A stretch of 64,000 nucleotides of DNA, taken from NCBI GenBank assembly GCA_025934715.1, contig JAICWR010000002.1:152-64151 (forward strand). The letters are read 5' to 3'. The translations under genes and the position numbers were made by a program. The notes beneath the pieces were generated by a model. That model saw only the letters and a list, made by a program, of their open reading frames with translations. It had not been told where the DNA came from and ran no database searches. The DNA is from Candidatus Saccharimonadota bacterium. Its GTDB lineage: Bacteria; Patescibacteriota; Saccharimonadia; Saccharimonadales; UBA10212. Below, one piece after another: positions 1,155 to 15,929 of the stretch (position 1 is its first letter; each line of letters starts with the position of its first letter).

Positions 1155-1192
1155 CACCAGATTTCTCTGATGCGTTTTTGGTGGAGTTGGCG
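1155..1192 (+). terminator. Putative intrinsic terminator after the PhnB-like gene
   Basis: Imperfect hairpin (gcaccag ... ctgatgc) followed by GTTTTTGG directly after the stop at 1146. Confidence 0.4.
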
Positions 1193-1783
1193 GGAAATTC
1201 TCCCGCGTCCGCTCGGTAACAAATCCGATGACTACAGGCTTAGGCCGCTTGAAGTCTTTACCTAGCCATTAAAACGGCCGAAAAAAAACTAGGCGCAATC
1301 CAGGCAGTCTTAACCGGATTTTAGCGGATTACTAAACCCCGGGGCAGCCAAAAAATATGGCGCGCCCGCTCACTATTTGGCGTCGTAAGCGGCGCGGCTA
1401 GCGTGATTAAGCGCTAACTGTTGCGAAAGAATACGCCGGAGCAAAAAGGCTCGCGACAGCAGTTCTCACGCGATTAAATGCGTTTGCATTTAGTGGTTTG
1501 ATCCGGCTAACGTGCAGATCAACCCGGCCTGCCATGTGGATGTGTCAATGTCCAAACGTCGAAATAAATTCAACCCCTCGTCGCAACCTATGCGTCTGCC
1601 TCGTTTCGGCTAGTAAGCCAAAAGCTTCGGCTTGACGCTATGTTGCTCCTCTCAATTTCGCGTACGGCTGCTAGCACCCCGATGCGCAAAATTGGAAAGA
1701 AACCTAAGTTGCAAAGAGCGACCGAACTTTGAACTAATATAGATTATACCACTTGTGTTAACTTTCTGCAATAGAGTAAGGGG

Positions 1784-5323: not shown

Positions 5324-7468
5324 CTATAGTTTCTCTAGTGGCGCGAAAGCGATGTTCAGCCGCTTGGTGCCAGCCGATTTAAAACGGATCGTGGCGTTAT
5401 CTCCCTCCAGGTCCAGCACGACACCCACGCCAAACAGTTCATGCTTGACTCCGTCGCCGGCTTCTAGCTCTGGCACGTAGCGGTGATCTTCCACCTGGGC
5501 GGGAAGGGCCGCCTCGGTTGTTGTGTCGAACAATCCATAACCAGCTTGTAAAACTGTTGTGGTGTTGATATCTGCCAAAAAACGGCTCGGCGGATTATGC
5601 TGGCGGCCGCCGTAAAGGGTCCTTTCGGTGGCATAGGCCAAAAATAGTTCCTGCTTGGCCCGGGTCATACCCACATACATCAGACGTCTTTCTTCTTCCA
5701 TCTCAGCCGGATCATAAAGCGACCGGCTATGGGGAAAGACCGATTCTTCCAGGCCGGTGATGAAAACCACTGGGAATTCCAGGCCTTTGGCTGAATGCAG
5801 GGTCATCATGACCACGGCGTCATCACTCATATCAGCCTGGTCCAGATCGCTGACTAGCGACACTTCCTCCAAAAAACCGGCTAGGCCGGCGTCGCTGTAC
5901 TCCGCGGCAACGCTTAGCAATTCTTTAACGTTCTCCACCCGGGCTTCGCCCTGAGGCGTGCCGTCTTGCATGAATTTAAGATAATCAAGCCGACGTATCA
6001 AACTGTCAATCAGGCTGGCCGGCAGTAATTCATCCATCTGAAGCCGGAAGCTGGCGACTATATCGGCCAATTCGGTAAGGCCGGCCCGGGCTTTGGGCGT
6101 GATGTCAAGGCAGCCCGACGATCCAGCCAGCGCTTCACCCAGGCTTAGGCTCTGGGCTTGGCGCCAGCTGTTAAACGACAGGAGGGACTTGGCCCCAATG
6201 CCGCGGGCAGGTACATTCACTATCCGCTCAAAGCTGGCTGAATCGTCGGGCTGGTAAATCAGTCTAAGATAAGCCAGGATGTCTTTAATTTCTTTGCGGT
6301 CATAAAAGCGGACGCCGCCGTAGATCCTATAAGGAATACCGTGGTGCACAAACACTTCCTCGAGTGCCCGGCTCTGGGCATTAGTGCGGTAAAGTATGGC
6401 GAAATCTTTGTAGCTGCGGGCTTTGATATCAACCGCCGACTGGATGCGCCGGACGACTGCCTCGCCTTCGCCTCTTTCCGTGGACACCTGCAGCACCTGG
6501 ATAGGCGAGCCGGCGCTGGCCGCTGTCCATAGTTTTTTATCACTGCGCAAACTGTTTTTAGAAATAATTAGATGGGCGGCATCAAGGATATTCTTAGTGC
6601 TGCGATAATTTTGCTCCAGCTTGATAATGGTGCACCTTGGGTAATCTTTTTCAAAATTAAGGATGTTGCGGAAGTCGGCGCCGCGCCAGGAGTAAATGCT
6701 TTGCCAGTCATCGCCGACCACCGCGATGTTTTGGTGAGTTCCGGTCAGCAGTTTCACCAATTTATACTGGGCAGAATTGGTGTCTTGGTATTCATCCACC
6801 ATCACGTACTTGAATTGGGCCTGCCACTTTTGTCGCAGCTGTTCATGCCCGGCCAGCATATCCACTGTCCGGCCGATTAAATCGTCAAAGTCCAACGCCG
6901 ATCCTTCTTTTAGCATCTTTTCGTAAAGCGGATAGACCTTGGCGGCGGCCCGGGCAGCGGGGCTGTATTCGGAGGTGGATTGGAATTCTTCGGGGCCCAC
7001 CATCTCGTTCTTAGCGCCGCTGATAAGTGACGTCAACAAACGCGCCGGAAAGCTTTTTTCATCAATGCCCGCTTGGCGGGCAGCCTGTTTGATAGCCGCT
7101 TGGCGGTCGCTCTCATCCCAAATCACAAAGCTGCGCGGAATACCGCTGTGCTCGCCGTCGTGGCGCAATATCCGCACACAAATACTGTGGAAAGTACCCA
7201 TATACGGCATAAAGCTTCGGTCCAGCGGGTCTTTGCCCAACAAACCGGCCACCCGCGACCGCATTTCGCCGGCCGCTTTATTAGTGAAGGTCACCGCCAG
7301 AATGTTAGCCGGCTGGGCCATATGGTTGGCCAAAATGTAAGCAGCCCGGTGTGTCAGGGTTTTGGTCTTGCCGCTGCCGGCTCCCGCCAATATCAGCAGC
7401 GGGCCCTCGGTGCATACGACCGCCCGCTTCTGTTCAGCGTTCAAACCACTCAAAAGACCGTCTGTCAC
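5324..7468 (-). CDS. pcrA: ATP-dependent DNA helicase UvrD/PcrA
   Basis: 714 aa; N-terminal 'LNAEQKRAVVCTEGPLLILAGAGSGKTKTLTHRAAYIL', helicase motifs (VMVDEYQDTN, TLHSAKGLEFPVVFI) and a C-terminal extension. Confidence 0.9.
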   Translation of the reverse strand: MTDGLLSGLNAEQKRAVVCTEGPLLILAGAGSGKTKTLTHRAAYILANHMAQPANILAVTFTNKAAGEMRSRVAGLLGKDPLDRSFMPYMGTFHSICVRILRHDGEHSGIPRSFVIWDESDRQAAIKQAARQAGIDEKSFPARLLTSLISGAKNEMVGPEEFQSTSEYSPAARAAAKVYPLYEKMLKEGSALDFDDLIGRTVDMLAGHEQLRQKWQAQFKYVMVDEYQDTNSAQYKLVKLLTGTHQNIAVVGDDWQSIYSWRGADFRNILNFEKDYPRCTIIKLEQNYRSTKNILDAAHLIISKNSLRSDKKLWTAASAGSPIQVLQVSTERGEGEAVVRRIQSAVDIKARSYKDFAILYRTNAQSRALEEVFVHHGIPYRIYGGVRFYDRKEIKDILAYLRLIYQPDDSASFERIVNVPARGIGAKSLLSFNSWRQAQSLSLGEALAGSSGCLDITPKARAGLTELADIVASFRLQMDELLPASLIDSLIRRLDYLKFMQDGTPQGEARVENVKELLSVAAEYSDAGLAGFLEEVSLVSDLDQADMSDDAVVMMTLHSAKGLEFPVVFITGLEESVFPHSRSLYDPAEMEEERRLMYVGMTRAKQELFLAYATERTLYGGRQHNPPSRFLADINTTTVLQAGYGLFDTTTEAALPAQVEDHRYVPELEAGDGVKHELFGVGVVLDLEGDNATIRFKSAGTKRLNIAFAPLEKL

Positions 7469-12808: not shown

Positions 12809-12883
<75 letters not shown>

Positions 12884-13089: not shown

Positions 13090-13256
13090 CTAAAACTTTC
13101 CTGCTTGGATGAAGCGCCAGGAAGCGGCGAAGCACGCAGTGAGCTGTATTGTAATACAGCGACTGAGTACTGGAGCCGCTGACACAGCGATTAGCCAAGA
13201 GCGCTGGCGGGTTCCGGTTTAGCCGGAAACAGGCCAGCGCGCCAGGAAAGTTTTAG
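13090..13256 (-). ncRNA. Candidate structured RNA element, copy A (paralog of 15765..15929); strand tentative
   Basis: 14-bp terminal stem (ctaaaactttcctg / caggaaagttttag), inner stem agcggc/gccgct, hairpin gctgtat-tgta-atacagc, and a long 3' hairpin gcgctggc..gttccgg-tttag-ccggaac..gccagcgc. Core sequence is shared with copy B and the stems covary. Confidence 0.55.
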
Positions 13257-13258
13257 TC

Positions 13259-13933
13259 TTAGCGACGCTTGCGGGACACAACGTAGTGCCCAGCAGCGCC
13301 CAGGGAACTCACTCCGGTAAAGATACCCAGCACGTCACCCGCGCCGGTGTTCGGCAAAGTCTTCGTAGGTGTTGGGGTAGGTGTAGGTGTTGGAGTCGGT
13401 GTAGGAGTAGGAGTCGGGCAGCTAATCTTGGCTTTATAGTTCACGAACTCAGTCGTTGAACCATTAAGGCCGCCGATGTCTACGCCACTGGAAGTGATAG
13501 TATCGGGCAAAGTCTTGATGACATTACCTTTACCATCAAACAAAGTGGTTGTGCCGTTCTCGTAACTCACGGTCTGAGCAGAATCTATGTTTACAGTAGC
13601 GATTCCAGAAGTACCGGAAGTGCCACCGAGGTTGGTGGTAGCCGTCATTATAGAGGTATTAACGGTAGAGCTGCCACTGGGCAAGTTTACCTTAACCTTA
13701 ACATCGGTAAGACCACCAAACGAAATGTTGTGAAGCCGAATGCTGTACTCAACCTGTTCACAAGCGCTGGCGTTGGTTGACGGAGCATAACTACCGCCTT
13801 TAGTAACGTTCTTGACGTTATACACGATAGAACCGCCTTCAAGCTGGCCAGGGCTGTCGGCAATCGCCGGAGCGGCAATAGCAAACACAGGCAAAGCAGC
13901 CAAAACAATGGCTAATTTAGAAAATCGAATCAT
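13259..13933 (-). CDS. LPXTG cell-wall-anchored surface protein with a (Pro-Thr)9 linker
   Basis: Signal peptide (MIRFSKLAIVLAALPVFAIAAPAIA); C-terminal 'CPTPTPTPTPTPTPTPTKTLPNTGAGDVLGIFTGVSSLGAAGHYVVSRKRR' gives an LPNTG motif, hydrophobic span and basic tail. Confidence 0.8.
   Translation of the reverse strand: MIRFSKLAIVLAALPVFAIAAPAIADSPGQLEGGSIVYNVKNVTKGGSYAPSTNASACEQVEYSIRLHNISFGGLTDVKVKVNLPSGSSTVNTSIMTATTNLGGTSGTSGIATVNIDSAQTVSYENGTTTLFDGKGNVIKTLPDTITSSGVDIGGLNGSTTEFVNYKAKISCPTPTPTPTPTPTPTPTPTKTLPNTGAGDVLGIFTGVSSLGAAGHYVVSRKRR
13357..13420. repeat. Dinucleotide-codon tandem repeat encoding (PT)9
   Basis: ggtgtaggtgttggagtcggtgtaggagtaggagtcggg on the plus strand corresponds to a CCN-ACN repeat in the gene. 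Confidence 0.7.
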
Positions 13934-14015
13934 ATCAATTCTCCTTATCTAATCGAACTTAAATTACTTTACTTAACAAACTAGGTAGATACTGGACTTT
14001 AAATAGAGTGAAATC

Positions 14016-14149: not shown

Positions 14150-15499
14150 CTACGTGCTGTGGAGCTCCTTGCTGACTCCACTGGGGATGCTGGGGTTCGG
14201 CGGCGGCTGGACGACATCGATCGGCGTCGACGGGTCAGGGCTTTGCACCTCACCCGTGGTCAGGTCGACCACGTGGGCCGACACGGTGTCGGTGACCGGC
14301 TCCGTCGGAGCCGTGTATGTCACCTCGATGACCTGGTCGCTGCCGGTTGCAATCACCGTGAACGAGTTCGTCACGCTGAGCGTGCCGTAGTTCACGTGCA
14401 TTGTGATCTGCAAGGTATTCCCTGCCGGTGCCAGGCAGTGCAACTTGACCGGCGCCGTACTGATGTTGCCGGTCGAGAAGTCGCTGGTGTCGACCTCCTG
14501 AATCGTGTCGAAGTGACACGAAGGAGGCGGCGGGGGCGGCGTTTGGCGGTTTTTGAACTCCGCCTGTACGCCAGAGGACTCACAGGTGAACGTCTCAGGG
14601 TTATCCGACAGGATCTCCCAGCCATTCTTCGGGTTCTCGGTGATGATAACCGAGTCACCGACCTTGCAAGTCCCTGCGGACTGCGGGTTGCTGTCGAGGG
14701 GTACCGTCGTCGTCGTTCCTCCGGTCGTCACCTGGAAGGTGAACGTGCCTCCGGTCGGACAGGTTTCCTGCACGCCGGTGTCGTCCTCGCAGACCTTACC
14801 GATGGTAATCGGCGGCTTGGAGGGCGGCGGGGTCTGAGGAGGCGGAGGTGGGGACGGAGGCGGGATGGTCTTGGTCGTCTGATGGTGGACGTGCGTCACC
14901 TTCGTGATGCACTTGTGCCGAACGACCGCGAAGTTACCGCATTTGAACGGCACCTTCGTTTCGATGAAGCACGTCTTGGTCGTGATGGTGTCCACCCGGT
15001 CAAAGAACTCGGTCTTGCTGCCGTCGCTGTTCGTGACGGTCTTGACCAGCTTCGTCAGGCCATGCTTCACGGTCGTCTTCACGTTGATGACGACGCGTGA
15101 GCAGAATGCCGGGGCGCCATGGCGCTTGTAGCGCGGGTCGCGGAACGTGACGTTCCGGTCCACACTCGTGCCATTGATGCCGAAGCTCATCCGGATGAAG
15201 TGATCGCCGTAGCGAAGCACGCACTGACGGAAATTGCCCTCGCGCGTGGCCAGCACGAACTTCTTCCGTGCGGACTTGCTGAGCCCGGCGTACTTCATGG
15301 CCGTCGCGCCCTTGCGGGACGTGATCAGCTTGACGTAGCCGTGACGAGCGTTGCCGTGGTCGAATGCCGCCAGGCCGCCCGGGGTTACCGGGTCGCCGCC
15401 GAGGCGGGTCCAGCCGTTGCTCGCGAACGCGCTGTTCGAAAGCATCAAGATCGCCCCGACCACACTGGCCAGGACGAGAAGGAAGCGCTTTGCACGCAT
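14150..15499 (-). CDS. Secreted multi-domain surface protein with polyproline linkers; compositionally atypical (high GC)
   Basis: Start at MRAKRFLLVLASVVGAILMLSNSAFA (signal peptide) with an AGGAGA Shine-Dalgarno 6 nt upstream. PPPSPPPPPQTPPPS and TPPPPPPS linkers; Cys-containing modules; about 60-65% GC against a ~50% flank. The overlapping Arg-rich ORFs on both strands are GC artefacts. Confidence 0.7.
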   Translation of the reverse strand: MRAKRFLLVLASVVGAILMLSNSAFASNGWTRLGGDPVTPGGLAAFDHGNARHGYVKLITSRKGATAMKYAGLSKSARKKFVLATREGNFRQCVLRYGDHFIRMSFGINGTSVDRNVTFRDPRYKRHGAPAFCSRVVINVKTTVKHGLTKLVKTVTNSDGSKTEFFDRVDTITTKTCFIETKVPFKCGNFAVVRHKCITKVTHVHHQTTKTIPPPSPPPPPQTPPPSKPPITIGKVCEDDTGVQETCPTGGTFTFQVTTGGTTTTVPLDSNPQSAGTCKVGDSVIITENPKNGWEILSDNPETFTCESSGVQAEFKNRQTPPPPPPSCHFDTIQEVDTSDFSTGNISTAPVKLHCLAPAGNTLQITMHVNYGTLSVTNSFTVIATGSDQVIEVTYTAPTEPVTDTVSAHVVDLTTGEVQSPDPSTPIDVVQPPPNPSIPSGVSKELHST

Positions 15500-15572: not shown

Positions 15573-15586
15573 CGATACTGCTAGAC

Positions 15587-15628
15587 CGTGCGTCTTAGCG
15601 ACAAATAACTTATCGCTAAGACGCACGA
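15587..15628. promoter_or_regulatory. Perfect 15-bp inverted repeat (CGTGCGTCTTAGCGA-N11-TCGCTAAGACGCACG); candidate operator or hairpin
   Basis: Read directly from the sequence; lies between structured element B and the terminator hairpin. Confidence 0.5.
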
Positions 15629-15764
15629 TCCAACCGGGCGCACTAAAGCTCGCGTGGATAAATGTAGTAGTCGGAATGGGATTAAGGAGCCGCCTTATAA
15701 ATAAGTGGCTCGACTTAAAGCCCCATAACTACCTAGTTTGCTGTCTTAAATTTACAAAATTTAA

Positions 15765-15929
15765 CACACTTTCGTGCTTGGAAGCAGTGCAAGGAAGAAT
15801 CAAGCAACGCAAAGAGCTGTATTTGAATACAGTGATTGAGTAGCGGAGATTCTGACGAAGCAATGCGCCAAGAGCACTTTAACCAAGGCGAGCTTAGCTT
15901 GCCTTGTTAAAGTGCATCACGAACGTGTG
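15765..15929 (-). ncRNA. Candidate structured RNA element, copy B (paralog of 13090..13256); strand tentative
   Basis: Terminal stem cacactttcgtg / cacgaacgtgtg, inner stem agaatc/gattct, hairpin ctgtatt-tg-aatacag, and a 3' hairpin gcactttaac-caaggc..ttagc..gccttg-gttaaagtgc. Colinear with copy A, with compensatory changes. Confidence 0.55.

Follow-up and report, generated by a model that had tools for sequence, protein, structure and literature searches.

In the Bacillus cereus group, the repeat bcr1 spans ~155 bp. It is a transcribed element whose two stem-loops build a cruciform with compensatory changes, and its genomic positions are not conserved (PMC3184786). Rickettsia palindromic elements (RPE) and other repeats, including those of the BOX, SPRITE, and RU types, were found fused in frame into genes (PMC3184786). 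Herein, we describe a family of non-coding elements of ~165–171 nt, carried by some Candidatus Saccharimonadales, mostly of soil and rhizosphere. The family shares with bcr1 its size, a cruciform-like RNA fold (a closing stem plus two stem-loops), and an intergenic, non-coding position with a distribution that differs between relatives. Its fold is likewise kept by compensatory changes. The two are alike only in kind and not similar in sequence, and bcr1 has 5-bp flanking direct repeats and behaves as a MITE, whereas no such repeats consistently flank the Saccharimonadales copies. In addition, the core of the Saccharimonadales family is far more conserved than its ends, and its structure persists in orthologues that are ~75% identical. 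With RPE, the family shares small palindromic repeats in intergenic positions, gene 3′ ends that are abutted or extended, and an in-frame insertion that leaves the ORF open (L093 8716–8917). It differs from RPE in that this in-frame copy is a single case and in that the elements form a strand-specific multi-helix fold with conserved loops instead of a simple palindrome.

The genomes of Saccharibacteria and other Patescibacteria are tiny and densely packed, and their non-coding RNAs and repeats are, to our knowledge, almost uncharted. A well-supported family (~170 nt, 38 covarying pairs, a conserved G·A-rich core, more than one copy per genome, and two subfamilies) therefore provides a concrete handle. 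The family merits an Rfam-type model, and it poses the question of why every copy retains the fold of one strand, regardless of how the DNA around it is transcribed.

Results and Discussion

Elements A and B

The window, by which we mean the whole 64-kb stretch of DNA that was analyzed, contains two elements, A and B. These were its only copies when it was searched with the family model with filters off. The elements and their parts are as follows.

13090..13256, + strand: element A, a subfamily-i copy of type AGCGGC..GAAGCAC..GUACUGGAG
13090..13103, + strand: A, 5′ arm of the closing stem P1; 14-nt perfect inverted repeat with 13243–13256
13104..13199, + strand: A, conserved arm P2–P6, from the fold, the conservation line, and pair counts
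13201..13240, + strand: A, variable 3′ hairpin, from the fold; helices 7 and 8 covary
13243..13256, + strand: A, P1 3′ arm; perfect inverted repeat partner of 13090–13103
15765..15929, + strand: element B, a subfamily-ii copy of type GAGCAAC..GUAGCGGAG
15765..15776, + strand: B, P1 5′ arm, from the fold
15777..15872, + strand: B, conserved arm P2–P6, from the fold; apical hairpin 15816–15833
15874..15915, + strand: B, variable 3′ hairpin, from the fold
15918..15929, + strand: B, P1 3′ arm, from the fold

A and B are colinear and have one architecture, consisting of the closing stem P1, a long G·A-rich arm, and a variable 3′ hairpin. The initial annotation had reported two colinear elements with a common core, and its coordinates were confirmed; the core pattern occurred twice in the window and in 0 of 100 shuffles. 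A repeat search of the window found a 111-nt direct repeat (13095–13205 / 15768–15878) with 74% identity, while global identity between A and B was 65% and core identity 72%. The P2–P6 arm of A has a CUUGG/CCAAG base, four tandem G·A internal loops, and an apical GUAU/AUAC hairpin at 13143–13160. The terminal stems that had been drawn for the two elements correspond to P1 in both. The internal stem corresponds to P4, which reads AGCGGC/GCCGCU in A (13123–13128 / 13175–13180) and AGAAUC/GAUUCU in B (15796–15801 / 15848–15853), with three positions altered on both sides, as had been claimed. The long 3′ hairpins of A (13201–13240) and B (15874–15915) were also recovered, and their sequences are unrelated. 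A TTAG loop motif had been described as conserved between them; this is not a family feature, and the tip of the family hairpin is GC-U-N-N-GC.

Against the family covariance model R1, A scored 155.3 bits (E ~6e-30) and B scored 144.7 bits (E ~1e-27). On the + strand, A folded with −85.2 kcal/mol (z −8.4) and B with −74.0 kcal/mol (z −8.8). The convergent LPXTG gene (13259–13933, minus strand) has its stop codon 2 nt beyond the end of A's P1 3′ arm. Reading the minus strand, a terminator-like hairpin (15965–15944) and its CTTTTGTTGT tail are followed by B, with a distance of 14 nt from the stem to B.

Copies and Subfamilies in Saccharimonadales

Twenty distinct copies were found in Saccharimonadales genomes and metagenomes. 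One came from a scan of GTDB genomes (L028), 18 from a metagenome scan, and further ones from look-ups of neighboring genes, and most loci were selected for carrying a copy or adjoining a known copy. The pattern used on the genome collection (TGAGTA...) was too strict, TGAGTA being a minority variant, and that scan returned one true homologue. The copies form two subfamilies that are common to several genomes. The core of A is nearest to those of L036, L041, and L048 (79–82%), and the core of B to those of L046, L105, and L042 (80–84%). A and B fall into separate subfamilies, and each is nearer to copies from other genomes (79–84%) than to the other (72%). This agrees with the earlier statement that they are not recent copies of each other.

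Rfam 15 gave no match over A or B, either at gathering thresholds in a scan of the whole window or at E ≤ 10 on the local 3.8 kb. Two ~186-nt stretches searched with lax filters returned snoRNA and miRNA noise alone, at 11–15 bits. The initial annotation had not recognized the fold as a known family, and that assessment held even at E ≤ 10 on short stretches. A blastn comparison of A and B with phage and plasmid sequences gave no match; two pattern scans of viral contigs gave chance matches alone, none of which fit the family model. An exact-sequence look-up of the window's proteins found no record. A literature search found no paper linking Saccharibacteria or Patescibacteria with small interspersed repeats, and no earlier description of the family. 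The family is absent from Rfam 15 and constitutes an uncatalogued family of structured repeats.

Covariation and Strand of the Fold

The family fold is a three-way junction. Its closing stem P1 has 12–17 bp and is free to vary in sequence. The invariant CUUGG/CCAAG helix leads to the long arm with four tandem G·A internal loops and the apical GUAU/AUAC hairpin, and the variable 3′ hairpin carries the tip GC-UNN-GC. Many loop nucleotides of the ~100-nt core are invariant. RNAalifold, applied to a plain MAFFT alignment, gave compensatory change in 32 of 52 pairs. Across the 20 distinct copies, 38 of the 52 pairs had changes on both sides, and standard pairing was found in 95.8% of pair cells, compared with 72% in shuffles and 26–45% in slid controls. 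None of 500 shuffles reached any of the five measures. Each of the 13 P1 pairs covaries, with variation on both sides; this stem has no conserved column and is the least conserved part of the element. The fold is maintained by compensatory change, and the view formed from A and B, that structure is kept while sequence diverges, extends to all 20 copies, with the covariation persisting as homologues were added.

G·U and U·G pairs outnumber A·C and C·A pairs across the copies by 67 to 5, which identifies the window's + strand as the one that folds in all of them. This strand was also the more stable one in 20 of 20 copies, by 2–28 kcal/mol, including ~10 copies that are antisense to their neighbors. 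Which strand folds does not change from copy to copy, however the neighboring genes are oriented. Orthologous copies were kept through speciation (L040a/L103, L040b/L042/L093, and L045/L051). They retain pairing at 75% identity, compared with 79–80% in their flanks; faster evolution of the elements than of the flanks was measured and was not supported.

Insertion Sites, Gain, and Loss

Copies were found in either orientation relative to neighboring genes. At 9 of 15 loci examined, the end of P1 lies −11 to +17 nt from a stop codon, and some stop codons are inside P1. The neighbors are housekeeping genes in conserved synteny, mutually unrelated between loci. The syntenic tgt-thrS-miaA-wHTH-MBL-M50 block of ~10 kb has at least six different occupied sites: on the thrS 5′ side, inside the PF01035 ORF, between miaA and wHTH, upstream of M50 in either orientation, and on the M50 3′ side. 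Orthologous empty sites were present in relatives on the thrS 5′ side, in the PF01035 ORF, between miaA and wHTH, and on the M50 3′ side. With these four filled and empty sites and its many copies, the family shows presence and absence of the MITE type. Contigs L034 and L049 begin inside an element and L044 ends inside one; the family recurs often enough to interrupt metagenome assemblies.

Some copies have interiors that are identical over >110 nt but differ in their outer P1 arms and flanks. These outer arms are unrelated between copies, yet complementary within each. This combination could reflect gene conversion between old paralogues instead of recent transposition. In three of three filled-versus-empty comparisons, the outer P1 3′ arm was native flank and the 5′ arm was its complement. 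No transposase, reverse transcriptase, or integrase was found in the flanking regions examined. Conserved terminal inverted repeats were absent among the copies, whose P1 ends differ in every case, and no consistent direct repeats indicative of target-site duplication flanked 15 copies; the family consequently has no known mobility route. A promoter search around the copies gave no −10/−35 at a fixed distance and no consistent terminator.

The copy in the PF01035 ORF of L093 is a 201-nt insertion of 67 codons, in sense orientation and with no stop, placed between QIAH and DLPWQRV of the protein, where L040 and L103 have TGPA or TGSS. It was present in 10 of 10 contigs of that population and is the single in-frame case; in other copies, 3 of 48 forward frames are open. 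This one copy is flanked by a 7-nt direct repeat, CGCTCAT. A 44-nt extra segment of the insertion gave no specific repeat in other loci, and its scattered 11-mer matches were taken as chance. The family accounts for some assembly breaks and for some overlong gene calls, one of them the 180-aa PF01035 "protein".

The Surface-Protein Locus

The minus-strand order is B, a palindrome, a high-GC gene, an LPXTG gene, A, a terminator, and tRNA-Glu, as the initial annotation gave it. A and B share one orientation and are separated by 2.5 kb, with tRNA-Glu 206 nt from A. The initial annotation held that the two elements bracket a surface-protein cassette. As functionally paired boundaries, att-like or co-regulatory, they would delimit a mobile two-gene cassette beside the tRNA, and their being the sole copies in 64 kb, their spacing and direct orientation, and the nearby tRNA-Glu favor this view. 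Proximity of this kind has a chance of ~8% for two random sites (2 × 2.7/64). The order of histidine kinase, high-GC secreted protein, LPXTG protein, and PGK, on the other hand, is retained in L054, L055, and L082, where the surface-gene homologues align at E 1e-37 and 5e-15. No element was found at the surface-protein locus of these three relatives, and the gene pair is ancestral there. A and B come from different subfamilies, and the two copies of L040 are inverted, 5.3 kb apart, and placed around housekeeping genes. We find paired boundaries hardly credible. The mobile cassette reading is largely refuted, and nothing in the analysis shows that A and B help to move or jointly regulate the two surface-protein genes of the window. 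This removes a tempting but wrong inference.

Two related proposals were rejected. The high-GC gene, the first of the pair, retains high GC in relatives (61–66%), and the idea that it is foreign DNA inserted between 32-nt inverted repeats was dismissed on homologues with equal GC excess at the same locus in three relatives. A and B as att-type direct repeats of an integrated island were dismissed on their membership in different subfamilies, with 72% core identity, and on the synteny of the enclosed genes in element-free relatives.

Possible Nature of the Family

We consider A and B to be old, independent members of a dispersed family of small structured interspersed repeats of the bcr1, RPE, or BOX kind, with the fold under selection, and place the probability of this reading at roughly 0.55. 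Such a repeat would be non-autonomous, and its copies would be transcribed passively from neighboring promoters, as 5′ UTR, 3′ UTR, or antisense read-through. P1 may clamp the ends into a compact, nuclease-resistant module, and the conserved G·A-rich arm may offer a recognition surface for a trans-acting protein, either the element's copier or a host RNA-binding protein. The lack of a known mobility route weighs against such a repeat, and the ~100-nt core, the invariant loops, and the long conservation in place go beyond typical selfish repeats and fit a host-useful RNA. Of the initial view that A and B represent a functional RNA and not a repeat or transposon, the selected fold stands, but the family is also a dispersed repeat that is gained and lost. 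Strong purifying selection keeps the fold of the same strand at all loci, even where a copy is antisense to all its neighbors, and this speaks as well for stand-alone trans-acting sRNA genes, in which at least two paralogue subfamilies would have their own promoters, the scatter would be ordinary paralogue gain and loss, and the G·A-rich arm would bind or sequester a protein. Two subfamilies common to several genomes, orthologous copies that persist through speciation, and some −10-like boxes upstream (e.g., TGCGACTAT before L040a) point the same way. Multi-copy sRNA families and orphan Rfam motifs also share with our family strong covariation, restriction to a lineage, no known function, and a size of ~170 nt with a closing stem. 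The present family differs from them in having no detected promoter or terminator of its own, variable positions, one ORF copy, and no entry in Rfam 15. Against sRNA genes stand the lack of a promoter motif at a fixed distance and of a terminator after the copies, the in-frame ORF copy, and the several copies that start 0–17 nt after a same-strand stop codon or inside a 5′ UTR. Assembly breaks are those of repeats, and for sRNA genes it would be unusual to occupy six sites within 10 kb of syntenic DNA. We regard sRNA genes as a credible but unlikely explanation. There is an outside chance that the family is a new small mobile structured nucleic acid (RNA or ssDNA, with a ribozyme- or guide-like core) whose P1 is rebuilt from inverted target flank, or else a minimal intron-like unit in ORFs. 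This is hinted at by the identical interiors with unrelated, complementary outer P1 arms, and by the native-flank 3′ arm with its complementary 5′ arm in three of three comparisons. If true, rebuilding of P1 from target flank would be an undescribed insertion mechanism.

Use of the fold as ssDNA, as a structure-specific recombination or transposition substrate like integron attC or IS200/IS605-type ends, would explain the strand-specific structure without transcription. The strand bias is independent of neighboring gene orientation, P1 varies in sequence with its pairing constant, the outer P1 3′ arm is native flank in three filled-versus-empty comparisons, and the ORF copy has its 7-nt direct repeat, all of which favor this use. 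Integron attC sites are recognized by R″ (RYYYAAC) and R′ (GTTRRRY) core sites, extrahelical bases, and a cassette array with or without intI. They resemble the elements in an outer stem whose structure matters more than its sequence, in strand-specific folding, and in frequent placement right after a stop codon, and the earlier cassette picture recalls an integron. The elements differ from attC in their 100-nt conserved core and housekeeping neighbors, and attC itself was rejected, with P1 ends that differ in every copy, no R″/R′ core sites, and no integrase or array. For ssDNA use more generally, no TnpA is nearby, four tandem G·A motifs with a conserved apical G·U are typical of RNA tertiary motifs, and orientation is mixed relative to local gene direction and hence to likely replication direction; we give it a slim chance. 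A new small catalytic or intron-like RNA, in which P1 would join the ends for self-cleavage or excision and leave copies harmless in UTRs or an ORF, is suggested by the complex, highly conserved core with invariant loop nucleotides, the juxtaposed ends, and the sense-orientation copy inside a conserved PF01035 gene. The apical helix (GAGCCGUAU..AUACGGU, with its conserved G·U) may resemble group II intron domain V at its base. The open frame of the ORF copy, however, would be expected of a translated element but not needed by an excised one, Rfam gave no match to group I/II introns or self-cleaving ribozymes at E ≤ 10, and neither a pseudoknot nor any other hallmark of catalysis was seen. A catalytic role accordingly appears quite improbable. 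Control of the downstream gene by P1, as in a cis-acting riboswitch or leader, we judge very improbable. In L045 and L051 the element does lie between a TGnTAnAAT promoter and a wHTH gene, where the Shine-Dalgarno sequence is part of the P1 3′ arm, followed after 1–2 nt by the start codon. A same-strand protein gene within 300 nt downstream, however, was found at 3 of ~13 independent loci (L045, L051, and L046), while 6–7 loci face the 3′ end of a convergent gene and most copies are convergent-facing or antisense. P1, with 12–17 bp and mostly perfect, would be too stable for switching, and the neighboring genes are mutually unrelated.

Several known classes were also compared and rejected. A classical MITE defined by conserved terminal inverted repeats does not agree with P1 being the least conserved part of the element. 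For a retron msr-msd, no reverse transcriptase was found in the flanking regions, the sole RVT_3 match being an RNase H protein. Group I and II introns gave no match to Intron_gpI, Intron_gpII, or group-II-D1D4 at E ≤ 10, and 165–171 nt is too small for a group II intron. Resemblances to SRP, 5S loop E, and the Mn2+ riboswitch (GGAGUAGC), and to the hammerhead (CUGANGA), K-turn, and CsrA-sponge motifs had no model match, and the motifs were not consistently conserved. 6S RNA is a rod with a large central bubble, present in one or two copies per genome; it was rejected for the family because the elements fold as a three-way junction, in which P1 and P2 adjoin directly (0 nt) on the 5′ side, and because A and B gave no RF00013 match. 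A separate 6S-like gene was observed in related loci, at L084 2630–2777, with a full-length RF00013 alignment of 17.9 bits (E 0.08).

Elements A and B and Their Neighborhood

Re-examination bore out the positions assigned to elements A and B in the initial annotation. The features of the window that are discussed here are as follows.

1179–1577, minus strand: tmRNA gene (RF00023, 93.5 bits)
12809–12883: tRNA gene
13090–13256, + strand: element A
13977–14008 and 15709–15740: 32-nt inverted repeat, AT-rich, 81% complementary, on either side of the high-GC gene
14150–15499, minus strand: high-GC secreted-protein gene
15584–15630: palindrome upstream of the high-GC gene (21-nt arms, 90% complementary, 5-nt spacer)
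15765–15929, + strand: element B

A repeat search of the window returned A and B as a 111-nt direct repeat with 74% identity and A with a perfect 14-bp terminal stem. The shared core pattern occurred twice in the window and in 0 of 100 shuffles, and the family covariance model (R1), run with filters off, placed only A and B in the 64 kb. On the + strand, A and B fold into the same architecture at −85.2 kcal/mol (z −8.4) and −74.0 kcal/mol (z −8.8), respectively; the reverse-strand folds are weaker, at −82.2 and −63.2 kcal/mol. The folded strand in the window is the + strand, opposite to every neighboring gene. The compensatory changes listed in the initial annotation are real, with P4 going from AGCGGC/GCCGCU to AGAAUC/GAUUCU, and the closing stems (P1) and 3′ hairpins are unrelated in sequence between A and B. 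That annotation recognized no known riboswitch or sRNA family in the fold; Rfam 15 gave no match either, even when very short stretches were scanned at E ≤ 10.

A Structured Family in Saccharimonadales

The first scan, a strict pattern built on a minority sequence variant and run against one genome per species, yielded one true homologue, L028, from a Candidatus Saccharimonadales MAG. A looser pattern applied to JGI metagenomes recovered 18 true copies, mainly from rhizosphere and soil, and all 18 share a common fold. R1 then added a second, more divergent copy in locus L040 and more copies in loci fetched by neighboring genes. Most loci compared were chosen for carrying or neighboring a copy. 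Nothing was found in phage, plasmid, and viral collections. The element is a real, well-supported structured family of Saccharimonadales, apparently undescribed before, with the conserved junction sequence GCCAAGAGC and the following parts.

P1: 12–17 bp, sequence free
P2: CUUGG/CCAAG, stacked directly on P1
Arm: four internal loops, 5′-GA/5′-GA or GGA/GA
Apical hairpin: GUAU/AUAC, G·U frequent at its base
3′ hairpin: GC-UNN-GC tip, AGCAGG internal loop often present

RNAalifold on a plain MAFFT alignment predicted 52 pairs and showed compensatory change in 32. In the R1 alignment of 20 distinct copies, 95.8% of cells pair, against 72% in column shuffles and 26–45% in slid controls; 38 pairs show change in both partners, and no measure was matched in any of 500 shuffles. 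This alignment was fitted to R1 and so favors the structure, but the slid controls and the independent MAFFT alignment speak for a real signal. Initially, the only invariant pairs were the four CUUG/CAAG pairs at the arm base, and the copy inside an ORF carries a C-G to U-A double change among them. Across the 20 copies, G·U and U·G pairs number 67 against 5 A·C and C·A pairs, and the element's own + strand is the more stable in 20/20, by 2–28 kcal/mol; one strand is therefore the folded one.

The core of A is nearest to those of L036, L041, and L048 (79–82% identity) and that of B to L046, L105, and L042 (80–84%); A and B share only 72%. They represent two subfamilies.

Subfamily i (A): AGCGGC..GAAGCAC..GUACUGGAG
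Subfamily ii (B): GAGCAAC..GUAGCGGAG

In three comparisons of filled and empty sites, the outermost part of the P1 3′ arm is native flank, and the 5′ arm of the element carries its complement. The three cases are listed below.

GCTGG, before a 6S-like promoter
An A-run complementary to the T-tract of a terminator
CGCTCAT-GATT, in an ORF

Copies with interiors identical over more than 110 nt differ in flanks and outer P1 arms; these arms are unrelated in sequence yet complementary. Neighboring bases may be recruited by selection for an extended closing helix, with gene conversion homogenizing the interiors; alternatively, the stem may be built during insertion, by the process itself. The family would gain in interest if this closing-stem observation, or catalytic activity, were upheld.

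Surface-Protein Genes between A and B

The initial annotation took A and B to bracket a surface-protein cassette, a reading that found no support: the gene pair is ancestral and element-free in three relatives. L054 (GCA_029288415.1), L055 (GCA_016198345.1), and L082 share the order histidine kinase, small ORF, 410–460-aa secreted protein, LPXTG protein, PGK, and TIM, and R1 with filters off found no element in these loci. The high-GC protein of the window matches that of L054 at E 1e-37, and its LPXTG protein matches the counterpart at E 5e-15. Since the subfamilies differ and synteny persists without elements, A and B are independent residents of the long intergenic regions flanking an ancestral gene pair. 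Roles as cassette boundaries or att-type repeats were likewise rejected, given the two subfamilies and the 72% core identity.

The high-GC genes (L054 12917–14290, L055 2971–4200, and L082 6001–7245, besides that of the window) have 61–66% GC against 47–55% in their neighbors, within genomes of about 50–55% GC. This excess recurs in all four genomes; it characterizes the gene family and does not signal recent import. The encoded family has no Pfam domain and only 14 homologues among 5.8 billion proteins; the histidine kinase that it adjoins, next to B in the window, has homologues throughout Saccharibacteria. The 32-nt inverted repeats were dropped as transposon ends because the high-GC gene is syntenic in relatives; they could be a regulatory site that both surface genes share, lying upstream of each in opposite orientation. 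Hairpins lie at a position analogous to the palindrome, upstream of the orthologous gene, in L054 (12791–12885) and L055 (2851–2945), suggesting that an operator or leader structure is conserved.

Genomic Positions and Turnover

Intergenic copies occur in both orientations relative to neighboring genes. At 9 of the 15 loci examined, one end of P1 is within −11 to +17 nt of a stop codon, which belongs to a same-strand upstream gene (L036, L042, L048, and L040b, one of two copies in L040) or to a convergent gene (A, L028, L035, L041, and L047). In L045 and L051, the element is part of a conserved wHTH gene's 5′ UTR, 3′ of a TGnTAnAAT promoter, and its P1 3′ arm contains the Shine-Dalgarno sequence; L040 and L042 have empty orthologous sites. 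Both L045 and L051 also have a conserved leader between promoter and element, ATGGTGAGTAAA, 12–30 nt upstream of the element. Related populations differ in which sites of the conserved block tgt-thrS-NT5C-PF01035-miaA-wHTH-MBL-L28-M50 are occupied.

L040: thrS 5′ side and M50 3′ side
L103: thrS 5′ side only
L093 (GCA_049521895.1): M50 3′ side and inside the PF01035 ORF
L042: M50 3′ side
L045, L051: miaA-wHTH
L046, L105: upstream of M50, in opposite orientations
L107: none

In L093–L102 (e.g., L093 8562–9104), the called PF01035 (MGMT/ATL-like DNA-binding) protein has 167–180 aa against 112–113 aa in relatives, the extra length being an in-frame element insertion directly before the PWQRVV motif. 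The L093 insertion of 201 nt adds 67 codons without a stop between QIAH and DLPWQRV, where relatives have four residues. Forward frames are open in just 3 of 48 cases in other copies, so this open frame looks selected.

The orthologous copies of L040 (L040a) and L103 are 75% identical and their flanks 79–80%, a comparable divergence. Both diverged copies keep the fold, so structure is conserved in place and does not merely derive from a recent master copy. Among metagenome contigs, L034 and L049 start, and L044 stops, inside the element, as assemblies do at repeats. L047 2003–2185 combines one locus's 5′ P1 arm, which complements the L034 3′ arm, with the 3′ arm and flank of another, as in L036 and L049; either the assembly is chimeric across the repeat or the recombinant is real.

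Genes for transposases, reverse transcriptases, or integrases are absent from the surroundings of every copy examined. At one locus only, L105, a copy is followed after about 100 nt by a small same-strand GIY-YIG nuclease-domain gene (5843–6100, 85 aa). A tRNA gene occurs about 200 nt from the element at 3 of about 13 independent loci (window 12809–12883, L040 1818–1894, and L042 7409–7484), by rough estimate above expectation for random intergenic sites and with inconsistent orientation.

Nature of the Family

Multiple copies, turnover of sites, and indifference to gene orientation, including the in-frame ORF insertion, make it most likely that the family is one of the small, structured bacterial interspersed repeats. 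It is most like bcr1 from the Bacillus cereus group, which has about 155 bp, a closing stem with two stem-loops, and compensatory changes, and which is transcribed and non-conserved in distribution (PMC3184786). For insertion within and beside genes, RPE, BOX, and SPRITE elements offer parallels, and reviewed in-frame fusions of repeats into genes are comparable to the PF01035 ORF copy (PMC3184786). The present family differs in lacking conserved terminal repeats and consistent target duplication; conservation is much stronger in its core than at its ends, and the fold is kept in place over considerable divergence. As interspersed repeats, the copies would be passively transcribed, P1 would make each a compact, stable module, and the G·A-rich arm would offer a putative protein-recognition surface.

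The main rival is an autonomous sRNA gene family, which strand-specific selection at every copy and the two conserved subfamilies support; however, promoters or terminators were not found, copies sit in UTRs and an ORF, and the assembly breaks are of repeat type. A single-stranded DNA substrate is possible, though no nearby recombinase supports it. The copies may also be ribozyme or intron-like RNAs, though the open frame kept by the ORF copy counts against this. A riboswitch is contradicted by the genomic context at most loci. The fold excludes 6S RNA, as does a separate 6S-like gene beside the M50 3′ copies. This gene, conserved, non-coding, and about 150 nt long (L084 2630–2777, between the M50 peptidase gene and tRNA-Pro) also occurs in L042, L093, and L103 and at the end of L040, with a TGnTATAAT promoter and an intrinsic terminator. 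Its full-length match to RF00013 is sub-threshold (17.9 bits, E 0.08, against a gathering score of 46.4), and the gene probably encodes the 6S RNA of Saccharimonadales, which Rfam thresholds miss.
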